Shown piece after piece: positions 33,603 through 39,600 of a stretch of 64,000 nt of DNA. The notes under the pieces are model-generated. The model made no database searches. It was not told the origin of the DNA and saw only the letters and a program-made list of their open reading frames with translations. Where the stretch lies: NCBI GenBank assembly GCA_965649765.1, contig OZ287756.1, positions 56,234,001-56,298,000 on the forward strand. Reading direction: 5' to 3'. Position 1 is the stretch's first letter. Every line of letters begins with the position of its first letter. A program made the position numbers and the translations under genes. The DNA is from Bispira polyomma. Lineage: Eukaryota.

Positions 33603-36600
33603 ATATTGAGAATCCATCTGAAGGGCATATATCTTTTGAAGGACATTCATCATGACTCAGAGGGTACTTGTATAAAGTATATAGTGGCTGGGTTTTTTTT
33701 GCCAATGATTGATTTCTTTCAAATCACAGGTTAACAAAATTGATAGCCCAGTTAACCCCACAGACAAAGTGAACAAATAAGAACGACTTTTCAGGAAAAA
33801 GAGAAATCTATATTATATACTGATACTCAGGCCTCACAGTATAATACTAAGCTAATCACGTATTAAACTTTATGCTAAAACTTAAAACAATCTGCAAAAC
33901 TATATCCAGCTGTGTCTTAAAATGTGTAGAATTATAAAGAGATCTAAACTACATATCAGAATTTTTTTACTGAAAACTATATTAGATGAATAGTATAATA
34001 TACCTAGGTTGCATGTATTACTCAAAGAGACTGCTCAGTCACACTGAATGTCTGGCTACATGTATTATTATAGCCCGGTCACACATACACAGAGCATCAC
34101 ACCATAACGGATATATGTAACTTTGAACCTCAGCACTCAGGATCGTAGTAAAAATTTGTGTATTATGATGTAATTTTCAGTGTTTAGCCATTCAGTAACA
34201 TCCAGTAACGTCCAGTCACATTCAGTAACGTTAGTTAGTTATGTTACACAATGAATTTAAAAGGTAAAGCCACTTAGTAGCAGGAATACTTAAGTTTATT
34301 ATCCGTTTTTAGGGCCCGTATTCACTAACAGACTAAGCTAAGTGTTTGGATTAAATCTAGCACAAAAGTATCTCATTTTGCTGTTTTATATTGTAAATTT
34401 ACCAATATAACCAATATTTACCAATATAATTATTGTCTCATCTTCTGTCTCATCTTCTGTTTTGAGACTTTTCGTCTCATTCTGTTGTTCTATATTGTAA
34501 ATTTGCCAATATAATTACTGTCTCATCTTCTGTTGCTACATGTTGGTGTAGTTGTACTTAGCTTAAGGTCAGGCTATAGTGTGGGGTGCTAGGGTGCCCG
34601 TGAGTCGCCCACGGGACGAAGAATTGTGCGGTGAGTTGTAGGGACAAGCTTTCTGAGGCTCCCCACTGTTGAGTTCAGGTTAAGGGCTTCTTCTTTTTCT
34701 ACAACCTCACTAGGCATGTTTCTGCTTCGGGTTGTCCTTTTTTCAGCACTGTTTGCTGTGGCTATGGCTCATAGGTATGAGTTGTTGCATCAGAGTGTTG
34801 CTCATACATCAGCAACCTCATTGGCTAAAGTTGCAAAAAATTTTTCATACACTTGTTCTTGTCGTAAATTTCCTACCACCATTAATGGAAGAGGTCTTGT
34901 TTTGTTACTTTTACTCGCCGGCGATGTGTCCCTTAACCCTGGCCCTGTCATGCTCGGGGTGTTAAATGCTAGATCCGTGAGGAACAAGGGTCCACTCCTT
35001 GCAGATATTGTGACATCGCACGACCTCGACTTCCTTTGTGTTACTGAGACCCATGTCCGTCTATCTGATACGGATAGCTTCCTACGGTCTATTACTCCTC
35101 CAGATTTTGTGTTTCCTCAAACGCCTCGTCCCTCACGTATTGGTGGCGGTGTTGGTTTCTTCATCAGATCCTCCTACAAACCAAATAAAATAGATTCTCC
35201 TGTCTATCAATCCTTTGAAAATATGGTGGTGTTAATTGGGCTTCATGGCCGCTCACTGTTGCTTGCCTGCGTCTATCGCCCTTCAGGATCCTGCACCTGT
35301 AATTTTTTAGAAGAATTTATGTCTTTTGTTGGTTTCTTGTCTTCCATTAACAGTTCATGTCATATCTGTGGTGACTTTAACATCCATGTTGATGCACCAG
35401 TTGGTGACGGTCATAAATTTATGACCTTTCTTGATTCATGCGATTTAAAATAGTTAGACAACCTACCCATCTGCATGGTCACATTCTGGACCTTATTTTA
35501 TCTCCTTGTGATCAGGATGCTATTGTGGATGTCAAAGTCTGTGATTGCATATCGGATCATGCATTAGTCAAATGCTCAATTGCCTCTCCCCCACAGGTGG
35601 CTCATATTCCCAATACAGTGCATTATAGGAGGTACCACCGTATTAACATGTCTGACCTCCGTACTGATCTTGAGAGTACTTCCTTTATTAAGTCACCTGC
35701 CAATTCTGTAGCCAAACTTTATGAACAATACATACATGACTTGGGTGATGTACTAGATAAGCATGCACCACTTGTATCCAGAATGTCAAAGAAAGATTCT
35801 GTGCATTGGCTCTCTGATTCTTACCGACGGGCAAAATCTCTCAGGCGCCAATATGAAAGAACTTGGCGAAGGGCCAAGAATCCATTAAATAGAAGTCGAC
35901 TACGTCGCCAGATTGCTCGGTGCAATGTACTTGTTAACGAGGATAAGTCGGTGTATTACAGTAAACTTATCTCTGACAACAGTCACAACTCCAGGAAGCT
36001 GTGGCACGAACTGCGCAAGACCCTTAATATGGATACCAATGTGGCACTCCCGTTCCATGATTCTGATAAATCACTAGCTGATAAGTTTGCTTCCTTTTTT
36101 TTTTGGACAATATTAAGAGAATTAGAGATACTTTTGTTGTCTCTGGAACTAAAATTGATGTTCATCCTCTTTCTGATCCCCCAGAAATTACTGCCTTTAC
36201 CAGAGTCTCTGAAGATGATGTTAGTAAAATAATAAGTAACTCGCCTACAAAATCCTGCATGTTGGATCCATGGCCAACATCTCTTATTAAAGAATGTAGT
36301 GATATATTACTCCCATCCATTACAAAACTTGTAAACTGCTCACTTACGGAGGGACATGTACCTGATGGTTTTAAAACAGCTGTGGTTACTCCTCTTATTA
36401 AGAAGGCTTCTCTTCCGGTTGATGACCTGAAGAATTATCGCCCTGTATCTGGTCTTAGTTTCATATCAAAACTGGTTGAACGCGTGGTTGCTAGGCAACT
36501 GTTAGATCACATCTTTGTCCACGACTTAGACAACCCATACCAGAATTGGCTCTACTCTGTCCGATCTTTGTAAACTCTTGTTTGGTGTCCCTCAAGGTTC

Positions 36601-39600
36601 TGTTTTGGGCCCTCTGTTGTTCTCATTATATACTGCTCCTCTCAGATTGGTTATTGGCAAATACACAAGAATAAAGTTTCATTTTTATGCAGATGACACC
36701 CAAATTTATGTGCACCTATCCAATAAAAATACATCTACTGTCTTTGAACAGTTGAACAGGTGCCTTGACGAGGTGAAAGAGTGGATGTCAACTGGTAAAC
36801 TCAAACTTAATCCCGACAAGACTGAGTTCATAATCTTTGGCTCAAAACAGCAGAGGGATAAGTTGAAAGCATTGTTTCCAGTTGACATCCTGGGTAGCCC
36901 TTTCAGTCCAGCTGATTCTGTCAAGAACCTGGGTGTATGGTTTGACTCTGACTTTCTTTCTCTAAACACGTTCAGAGTGTCTGCAAAAGCTGTTTTATGC
37001 AACTTCGTGACTTTAGACGTGTCAGACGGTTTCTCACTTATGATGCTTCTATACTTGTGGCCAATGCCTTTGTCAGTAGTAGACTGGATTACTGCAATTC
37101 ACTTTTCAGGAGTCTCTCAAAGTTTAATTTACGCAAATTACAATGCATTCAAAATAGTGCAGCTAGAATTGTGTCAAACACCAGTCGATACACTAGTATA
37201 ACTCCTATTCTTAAGAAATTGCACTGGCTCCCTATTGAACAGCGTTCAGTGTTTAAGACAGCTACACTTGTTTATAAGTTTCTCCACACTGGGTTTCCAA
37301 AGTATTTTGCCCCATATCTTTCCACTTACAGTAGTTCCTACAATACCAGACGTAGTCAGAGTGGTAGTAATTTCCTTGTTGTTCCGAAGTTCCACCCATC
37401 TACTCAAAAGTCGGTTAAACAGTTTGGTCACAGCTTTGCTTTTGATGCTCCCATTGTTTGGAATGGTCTTCCTGATGTGATTCGTGCTTCCCCCTCACTA
37501 GCCTGTTTTAGAAAGAAGCTTAAAACCCACTTGTACACCAAAGCATACCCACCTTAGTCTCAATCATCCCCTGGCGCGCTCTATGTTGCTGACCCTTTTT
37601 CTGTCCCTTGATTTTGGAAATTGGATAACTGTCTTTTGTGCTGGTGCGCCTTAGAGTCCCCTTTGTTAAGGGGAGATTAAGCGCAATAAAAGTCTAATTA
37701 CAATTGCAATACTAGATTTAAGCCTAAGACTGCGCTTAGTCTGTTAGTGAATACGGACTCTGATGTTTTGTGAGGATTCATGATTTATTTGTGGCGTTTC
37801 ATTACGTTTTTGTGAGGTTTCTTGACATTTTTGTGAGGTTTCATGATGTTTTTGTGACAAATCTGCGACAGATCAAAATAAAACAAAAACAGTCACTTTA
37901 TCGCTAACTTTCACTAGGTAGAGCTACTTTAATAACTGCTACATATTACTGCTACTTTGGTGAAACATTTTGTGACAACTACAGATGAATACAGAAACAG
38001 AGAGCTCTGCCATGATTAGTTAAAAATATTCGTCTCAACTTCTGAAATGTATCTAAAAGTAGAACGATTGCAGATGTTTCGCAAAGACATTAGAAGGAAT
38101 TCTCACTTTGAGTGACATTTCGAAAAGTAGTACTATCATAGCTGCTGAACAGAGAGGTGTGACCAGAACATTACTCTAAGAGTGGCCAGTTATATTAAAT
38201 GACTGGCTACATGTATTACTTTGTGAGTGGCTAGTTACATTGAATGACTAGCTACATGTATTACTGAAAGAGTGGCCAGTTATATTACGGTAAGAATACA
38301 ATTTTGTATTACTCAATGAGTGGTCAGTTATATTGATTGACTGGCTACATGTATTACTTAATGATTGGCTAGTTACACTGAATGACTGGCTACATGTATT
38401 ACTCAATCAGTGGTCAGTGATATTGATTGACTGTCTGCTTGTATTACTTAATGAGTGGCTAGTTACATTGAATGGCTGCTTACATGTATTACTCAATGAG
38501 TGGCTAGTTACATTAAACAACTGCTTGCATGTATTACTGTACTCAATGAGTGGCTAATTCCATGGCTGATCTCAGTTCTCTCAAAGGCCTAGCTGTCTCA
38601 CAAACTCACACCGTCAATCAAATCCCACAATCAATACCAGGACTCTACATAAATCTCACTCCAGCTTTTTTTCATTTGGGATTGTATTTTTTCACACCTC
38701 TGTATTGAATGGATAACTTTCAATTGAATGGAATCACTGGATCCTCAGGATTTCACAAGTCTAGAGCCTCAGATACACACACAAACATATAAACAGCTAG
38801 GAGAGTGGATCTAGATATAATGGTTCTTTAGCTAGTATTCTTTACCTTTATAACTTTATTAGTAAATCCTTCGATTTTCGGCCTACCTCATATTTTCAGC
38901 CTATATCATGTTTAAATAGAGGTAAAAATTACTGTCTGTACACAAACAGATCATTTTCAATGTTGGACATTAAGGTAAACCAGTATCAGTGTATTTTGAA
39001 ACCTAATTATGAATAATAGCCTGCAAAGCAATTGAAACCATAAGTGTTTATTAGTTGCTAAAATAGGCTGAAAATACGGTGAACCATCATAACTCCTGTT
39101 TTATACGTGATGATCCGGTAAAGACACAATAGTCAATTACTGGTATAAAGTACTGTCAATTGTCTTAATCCATCCAATTATGACTAAGCTAGACGTTATA
39201 TCATTCACAGTGAAGACTCCCTCTATTACCACTTGTCAATAACACAATCGACTATCTTGTTTACTAAATTGATTAACCTTTAACTCAACATGAACGTGCA
39301 GTAAATTTAAAGTGTGTGTTTTTACATTCCCTAGTACAAGGTTGTCATTTTTTTTTTTTTTTCAGGTGAGCTGCCTGATTAGGAATAAAGTTATTATTTC
39401 TCTATTGTAAACAAAATTGTAAAATAAAAAAGTTTATGACAAACCTTGTTTGAAATTATAGTACACAGATACATTTCAAATGAAATGTTCAAATTTTTAG
39501 AATAAAAAATATATTTACATGTCATTGTATGATTTGAGATTTAGTCTTAATTATTATAATAGTGAGTCTCTGAACCACTTTTTGCGAATACAAACTTGAA

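Follow-up and report, generated by a model that had tools for sequence, protein, structure and literature searches.

The single ORF of a LINE in the window (the whole 64,000-nt stretch of Bispira polyomma DNA analyzed here) begins with a hydrophobic, signal-peptide-like segment and carries a non-canonical 2A-like motif, with Ser in place of Glu, directly before its AP endonuclease (APE) domain. We propose, with a probability of about one in two, that the hydrophobic segment and the Ser-variant motif act together, combining ER targeting with a partial stall-and-skip that would limit free APE-RT. The separate signal-like start of this LINE ORF2 is real and conserved, and apparently undescribed. 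No report of one was found in the literature (subscription papers, theses, Repbase notes and supplements may hold one), and the parts of PMC12846837, PMC12338488 and PMC11512398 that were covered do not mention such a segment.

The window copy and its family

The LINE containing this ORF spans 34369 to ~37711 on the + strand (Table 1). The window ORF is 34716-35453 and its start reads as the initial annotation gave it. That annotation had described a signal-like start and a 2A-like motif immediately before APE, and this anatomy was confirmed. Residues R59 to P77 take up 34890-34946, residue 76 is the Gly of NPG, and TCC occupies the Glu position. Pfam Exo_endo_phos (PF03372) covers residues 91-229 of the window ORF (E 3.9e-7), directly after the motif. 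In the predicted structure the first APE strand is residues 80-84 and the APE pLDDT is mostly >90. The window copy is dead: it carries frameshifts, lacks ~237 nt at 36543/36544 and has a stop at 35451-35453.

Table 1. Features of the LINE copy in the window.
Feature	Positions	Strand	Description
5' UTR remnant	34369..34715	+	347 nt left of the ~965-nt UTR; no ORF1
Predicted signal-peptide-like segment, residues 1-18	34716..34769	+	One Arg, 13 uncharged residues, A-x-A before His19
Basic linker, residues 19-58	34770..34889	+	Sequence poorly conserved; CSC not conserved
Leucine helix and non-canonical 2A-like GDVSLNPG/P	34890..34946	+	Ser replaces Glu, codon 34929-34931
AP endonuclease domain	34947..35453	+	Pfam PF03372; premature stop cuts the domain in the window copy
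Rest of single ORF: linker, reverse transcriptase, C-terminus	35454..37557	+	Frameshifts; ~237-nt gap at 36543/36544
3' UTR	37558..37711	+	Ends in a short tandem (ATTACA-type) tail

A sibling copy has a stop-free ORF of 1026 aa with APE and RT (RVT_1, PF00078, E 4e-27). With APE followed by RT within one ORF, dispersed copies, variable 5' truncation and a short-repeat 3' tail, the element is an APE-type non-LTR retrotransposon (LINE). Copy depth rises about fourfold or more toward the 3' end, and no long terminal direct repeat was found at the element. We take the C-terminal motifs and the tail of the family to resemble those of L2. A DNA search of the 1.04-Gb genome returned 1,142 candidates; the 40 that were scored were all 97-100% identical over the query. 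The first 22 nt of the signal-like segment gave 486 genome matches at ≤1 mismatch (control 0) and the family's own 2A-like motif gave 539, with about 500 copies retaining the leader. Two sequencing runs compared with the element gave multi-copy coverage only. Judged by its copies, the family is young and has spread recently.

The 5' truncation point of the window copy is at 34369, since similarity to 29 other copies starts at 34369-34373. Most other copies extend further upstream, the longest by ~620-640 nt. The full-length 5' UTR is ~965 nt (903-969 nt and one of 1,416 nt in seven copies, these being the ones among 20 fetched copies in which the 5' end motif was found). A search for ORF1 in these seven UTRs found none. 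Their longest stop-free stretch is 57-72 codons, so the family is considered to be without ORF1. The claim that no ORF1 lies upstream thus stands for full-length copies; the window copy, on which it was made, is missing ~620 nt at its 5' end. The seven UTRs hold 7-13 short upstream ATG frames. One of them (L039:608-1570) contains 183-nt tandem monomers (2.5 copies) and has eight upstream ATG frames of 2-19 codons. Together, monomers and upstream ATGs may provide an internal promoter array and dampen translation at a second level.

At the other end, the loose ends of the LINE lie at 37705-37710 and sibling copies share this 3' end with 1-3 repeat units. Two 50-nt inverted repeat arms (34311-34360 and 37712-37761, 86% complementary) flank the LINE, and contigs show the empty insertion site joined. 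The site of insertion was a small palindromic repeat that is probably MITE-like. Just downstream of the insertion, four units are repeated at 21-nt spacing (37766-37870). By eye, a ~41-nt unit forms a degenerate tandem array at 38190-38560, with a related unit at 34010-34075.

Ser at the Glu position of the 2A-like motif

All 30 copies examined (window copy included) have the start Met and, at the Glu position of 2A, the Ser. The initial annotation had proposed to look for the ATG in the family copies, and it is there. NPGP is intact in 27 of the 30 and the whole GDVSLNPGP in 20. With Ser in every copy, the motif is not a canonical class A 2A (D(V/I)ExNPGP with Glu). It has instead the layout of a non-canonical 2A-like motif with a leucine stall helix, namely GD(V/I)xxNPGP and a Leu-rich helix at -19 to -10. 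The window peptide has six Leu in the first 11 of its last 20 residues, and a helix is found at residues 58-68 of the predicted structure. L66, G69, D70, N74, P75 and P77 are each kept at ≥90% in 32 aligned proteins.

The pattern LAGD(V/I)xxNPGP matched the genome 1,739 times and its reverse 0 times, so the motif is not a chance occurrence (reversed-pattern controls for the motif searches gave 0 matches, once 1). A pattern excluding Glu (after Ser/Cys/Thr-type codons) matched 884 times; both of these searches return mostly, not solely, non-Glu forms. Gln/His forms gave 155 matches, Ser codons TCA/TCG/TCT gave 40 and the canonical Glu form 67. For the family's own motif, 96 Ser and 0 Glu were found among the matches listed (100 of 539). 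Non-Glu motifs dominate the Bispira polyomma genome. The Ser codon differs among four families (TCC, TCT, AGC and AGT, both codon sets). In a wider set, 108 of 220 database relatives carry the motif, with Ser in 49, Ala in 23, Glu in 17, Asn in 7, His in 6 and other residues in 6. The comparison indicates that the Ser has been maintained in the lineage and did not arise by decay, in agreement with the initial annotation, which had argued against simple decay from the codon in the window copy.

We rejected the possibility that the motif belongs to the APE fold (the model has a strand at 71-74), as it precedes PHD-type patterns or long spacers too. A PHD-type Cys pattern directly follows the 2A-like motif in families L072, L087, L112 and L124, the first two of which have a Glu motif and a weakly hydrophobic start. 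In P0056 and P0311 an additional spacer separates signal and motif from APE.

ORF1-less LINEs with a 2A-like motif ahead of APE, the Ser variant and the throttle idea have already been published (PMC3708506, PMC3894237), and the position N-terminal to APE stated in the initial annotation agrees with these papers. Odon et al. (2013; PMC3708506) reported Glu-to-Ser in three Nematostella elements; the Glu-to-Ser peptides of Crack-3_NVe and L2A-1_NVe were inactive in vitro. The LINEs of that study, including the Glu-to-Ser elements CR1-2_NV and Crack-3_NVe, share with the window family a single ORF, the lack of ORF1 and a 2A-like motif that immediately precedes APE at 40-80 aa from the N-terminus. 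Substitution at Glu occurs there too, and a throttle was proposed there. The passages covered assign no function or signal peptide to the part upstream of 2A, whereas the window family has a conserved hydrophobic segment at that place.

More recent reporter data bear on the Ser variant. In a preprint by Snell and Matreyek (2026; PMC13405545), poly-Leu was linked to skipping and lowered protein. The stall-helix peptides described there share poly-Leu at -14 to -10 with the window motif and are common in LINE ORF2p; 59% of the tested ORF2p cases lowered protein. Only 20-mers were tested in that work, and the passages covered discuss no signal peptide. Its supplement file 3 contains 22 Ser variants in register with NPG among the GDVS/GDIS places listed (30 of 31). 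Ten of them have at least 4 Leu in the first 11 residues, a cut-off chosen after seeing the rows: six are classed as skipping, two as fall-off with reduction and two as non-skipping with reduction. The 12 with fewer than 4 Leu are all plain non-skipping. Row 3866, which has the same last 12 residues as the window peptide, is classed as 'skipping, reduced'. These classes are model calls from pooled human-cell data. The activity throttle suggested in the initial annotation fits this screen as well as the earlier published proposals. Baral et al. (2026; bioRxiv 10.64898/2026.09.24.754024) measured 39% StopGo for one Ser variant.

The hydrophobic, signal-like N-terminus

Cleavable signal peptides follow an n-h-c layout with 7-15 hydrophobic residues, and by hydropathy heuristics the leader has this layout. 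Its n-region contains a single Arg only and is less basic than initially described. In the window leader the best 11-residue hydropathy is 2.76 in frame versus 1.92 and 1.22 out of frame. The value for the window family is not beyond base-shuffled controls (p 0.12), so the support for a signal-like start rests on many families. The sample was a single natural copy per family for 11 families of the Bispira polyomma genome. All eight non-Glu families start with a hydrophobic run (best 11-residue hydropathy 2.09-3.19), with an in-frame value above both other frames in 8/8 and a shuffle p<0.03 in 5/8. The three Glu-motif families sampled have a weak or no hydrophobic start (1.97, 1.02 and 1.43); L061 and L098 are Glu-motif families without a signal-like start in the copies seen. 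Among database relatives, 14/16 Glu leaders have a hydrophobic start, and its lack in Glu families is not a general rule.

Hydrophobic starts, defined as an 11-residue hydropathy ≥2.0 within the first 45 aa, were found in 54/68 database relatives with at least 55 aa before the motif. Only 43/938 internal windows of the same proteins reach the threshold. When the strict motif is lacking, 12/21 long-leader relatives still start this way, which is not clearly different from the 54/68 with the motif (p 0.05). Inspection of these 12 revealed five with a variant or degenerate motif, one with an internal patch only and six with a basic leader without motif. P0036, P0037, P0060, P0144, P0163 and P0195 have a hydrophobic start and no 2A-like motif, most of them with an Arg/Gly-rich basic patch. 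The distribution suggests that the signal-like start is wider than 2A, and the two are not an obligate pair.

The uncharged run begins at or near Met and has a median length of 16 residues. The charge balance fits an N-in signal (C-minus-N ≤0) in 32/43 leaders. A reverse signal-anchor topology was rejected on the unfavourable charge difference (C>N in 11/43 only). The (-3,-1) cleavage rule holds in 38/59 relatives, which does not exceed the 59% seen in linkers; conservation of A-x-A/S before His/Arg, with a variable middle residue, is confined to the nearest relatives. If the signal were cut at A18/H19, the released piece would be 58 aa and not the 76 aa first estimated. Between the end of the hydrophobic segment and the Gly lie 54-102 residues (median 70) in 59 relatives, the lower bound being partly set by the ≥55-aa filter, and 60 residues in the window family. 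Leaders shorter than 55 aa reach hydropathy 2.0 in 1/17 cases, and several of them are N-terminally truncated calls.

Selection was measured in sister families and not in the window's own family. Signal dN/dS was 0.44 in one of the two unsaturated comparisons and 0.32 in the other; the corresponding pairs were 0.32/0.15 (linker), 0.28/0.06 (2A region) and 0.33/0.22 (APE). Pooled Fisher p values for the leader comparisons were 0.047, 1e-5 and 0.001; four of six family comparisons (F/G, A/H, F/D and A/B) are saturated at synonymous sites and were left out of the pooled test. Purifying selection acts on the leaders of the sister families. Within the window family, 17 synonymous and 59 non-synonymous codon differences look like neutral decay. 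The conservation with dN/dS<1 that the initial annotation had proposed as a check is thus seen between sister families (0.15-0.44 for signal and linker) and not within the window family. In a tree of 49 long proteins (FastTree, midpoint root), the window family falls in a 24-member clade with support of 0.998. The motif is carried by 23 members, Ser and Glu interchange, and the hydrophobic start is found in 18/19 members whose leader is long enough.

Proposed ER targeting with partial skipping, and other explanations

In the reading that we favor, a ribosome at Gly76 would have the signal ~60 residues back, beyond the exit tunnel, and SRP would dock the ribosome and the element RNA on the ER. 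SRP could engage because this distance exceeds the 30-40 residues that the tunnel holds (PMC2978324). The leucine helix would pause the ribosome. Some ribosomes would then skip the Gly-Pro bond and continue, giving a signal-free cytosolic APE-RT beside its own RNA; other ribosomes would fall off, be cleared, or read through. Read-through protein would keep the signal and be lost to the ER lumen or degraded, and the 58-aa middle piece would be a by-product. The skip rate may depend on ER engagement, given that translocation is reported to inhibit 2A in some constructs (PMC2978324). Since the family spread recently, we infer that some enzyme must escape the ER to reach the nucleus. The escape would be by skipping or by incomplete SRP capture, because the leucine helix looks too short and polar to hold the protein in a membrane and Met79 is not conserved. 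On a membrane-insertion scale the helix, about 10 residues long, scores +3 to +7, which is too polar for anchoring. Translation from Met79 was rejected as a general route (Met in only 3/29 rows). Against the favored reading stand the two inactive Glu-to-Ser peptides, the lack of an excess of (-3,-1) sites and the 2A-less hydrophobic starts. The weak or absent hydrophobic start in the three Glu-motif families sampled, the neutral look of differences inside the window family, the hydrophobic frames in upstream UTRs and the reported inhibition of 2A by translocation count against it too.

A comparable switch is known from the 2A-like signals of sea-urchin NLR proteins (Roulston et al., 2016; PMC4981915), where skipping determines whether the downstream product is cytosolic or enters the secretory pathway. 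In those host immune genes, signal and 2A are a single N-terminal peptide of 26 aa. The window LINE differs in being a retrotransposon and in having signal (residues 1-18) and 2A (residues 59-77) apart, 40 residues from each other; it does not carry an SpNLR-type dual peptide.

Placement of the RNA, and not a throttle, could be the main job of the leader: the pause would let SRP dock the element RNA at the ER or the nuclear envelope as the site of particle assembly, in place of the missing ORF1. This close rival is unlikely in our estimate, and it is compatible with ER targeting plus partial skipping, not exclusive of it. The lack of ORF1 fits such a role, as do the signal-like starts with a basic leader and no 2A, as if targeting were older. 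In XBP1u, a hydrophobic segment (HR2) exposed during a pause at an arrest peptide recruits SRP and the mRNA is carried to the ER (PMC6624018); the segment-to-Gly distances of the LINEs (60 residues in the window family) compare with 52 residues in XBP1u, although their lower bound partly reflects the length filter and shorter leaders reached the threshold once in 17. Ty1 Gag provides a case of a retrotransposon RNA localised by SRP (PMC3945221). The likeness to both is in mechanism only, as their sequences are unrelated to the window LINE, Ty1 belongs to the LTR elements and no skipping occurs in XBP1u. It is also conceivable, if improbable, that the hydrophobic start is a degradation tag and not an ER signal, so that read-through protein would be destroyed in the cytosol and only skipped protein would survive. 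Leu-rich 2A-like peptides alone lower protein (PMC13405545), there is no cleavage-site excess across the 59 relatives, and N-glycosylation sequons in the linkers show neither excess nor lack (20 versus 19.75 shuffled). Cytosolic quality control acts on exposed hydrophobic ends. The position of the uncharged run at or near Met and the charge balance are signal-peptide-like, however, and the nearest relatives keep the A-x-A/S. Quite unlikely, in our estimate, is that skipping does not occur and that the whole protein is held in the ER membrane by its two hydrophobic segments, with APE-RT on the cytosolic face, from where it would later be released or would act at the nuclear envelope. The in vitro inactivity of Ser variants (PMC3708506) would agree with it, and a basic linker (net positive in 40/43 leaders) could slow translocation. 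The short, polar second segment speaks against an anchor, as does the exact conservation of NPGP, which an anchor does not need; in some families the motif precedes PHD-type Cys patterns and not APE.

The initial annotation had also raised a secreted micropeptide with a CSC motif, and this part was not borne out. That the 58-aa piece is secreted with a function of its own is very improbable: despite the low linker dN/dS in the sister families and a median of two Cys per linker, C47 is kept in 7/32, S48 in 7/32 and C49 in 8/32 aligned rows, and linker length and sequence vary widely. Neither a conserved mature sequence nor a Cys pattern was found, and 2A-less relatives carry the signal-like start as well. 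The linker has a pLDDT of about 60 in the predicted structure, and an ESM Atlas search with residues 1-90 was uninformative (best score 0.77). Least credible is a by-product of a T-rich sense strand, a reading already disfavored and now barely tenable. The element has an AT skew of -0.09 to -0.16, frames in the UTR upstream are often hydrophobic too (to 2.5-3.7 in several families), and the window family taken by itself does not exceed its shuffles. Yet seven of the eight non-Glu families have their highest T content at codon position 2 (in the eighth, positions 1 and 2 tie), hydropathy is lower out of frame, the segment of one family follows a UTR of 15% T, and dN/dS is below 1. Base composition thus contributes to the hydrophobicity, and the start is nonetheless in frame and goes beyond T-richness.

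The finding bears on how ORF1-less LINEs assemble a particle and restrain their enzyme. Tentatively, and with clearly less confidence than in the reading for the window family, we suggest that a broad undescribed class of single-ORF LINEs may have replaced ORF1 with a signal peptide and a stall module: SRP would dock the RNA on the ER or nuclear envelope, Ser-type StopGo would free the enzyme in cis, and the unskipped remainder would enter the secretory pathway. In the published work on LINE 2A sequences, the peptide upstream has no assigned function. The signal-like start would give it a testable role, and it would tie LINE biology to SRP and the ER.
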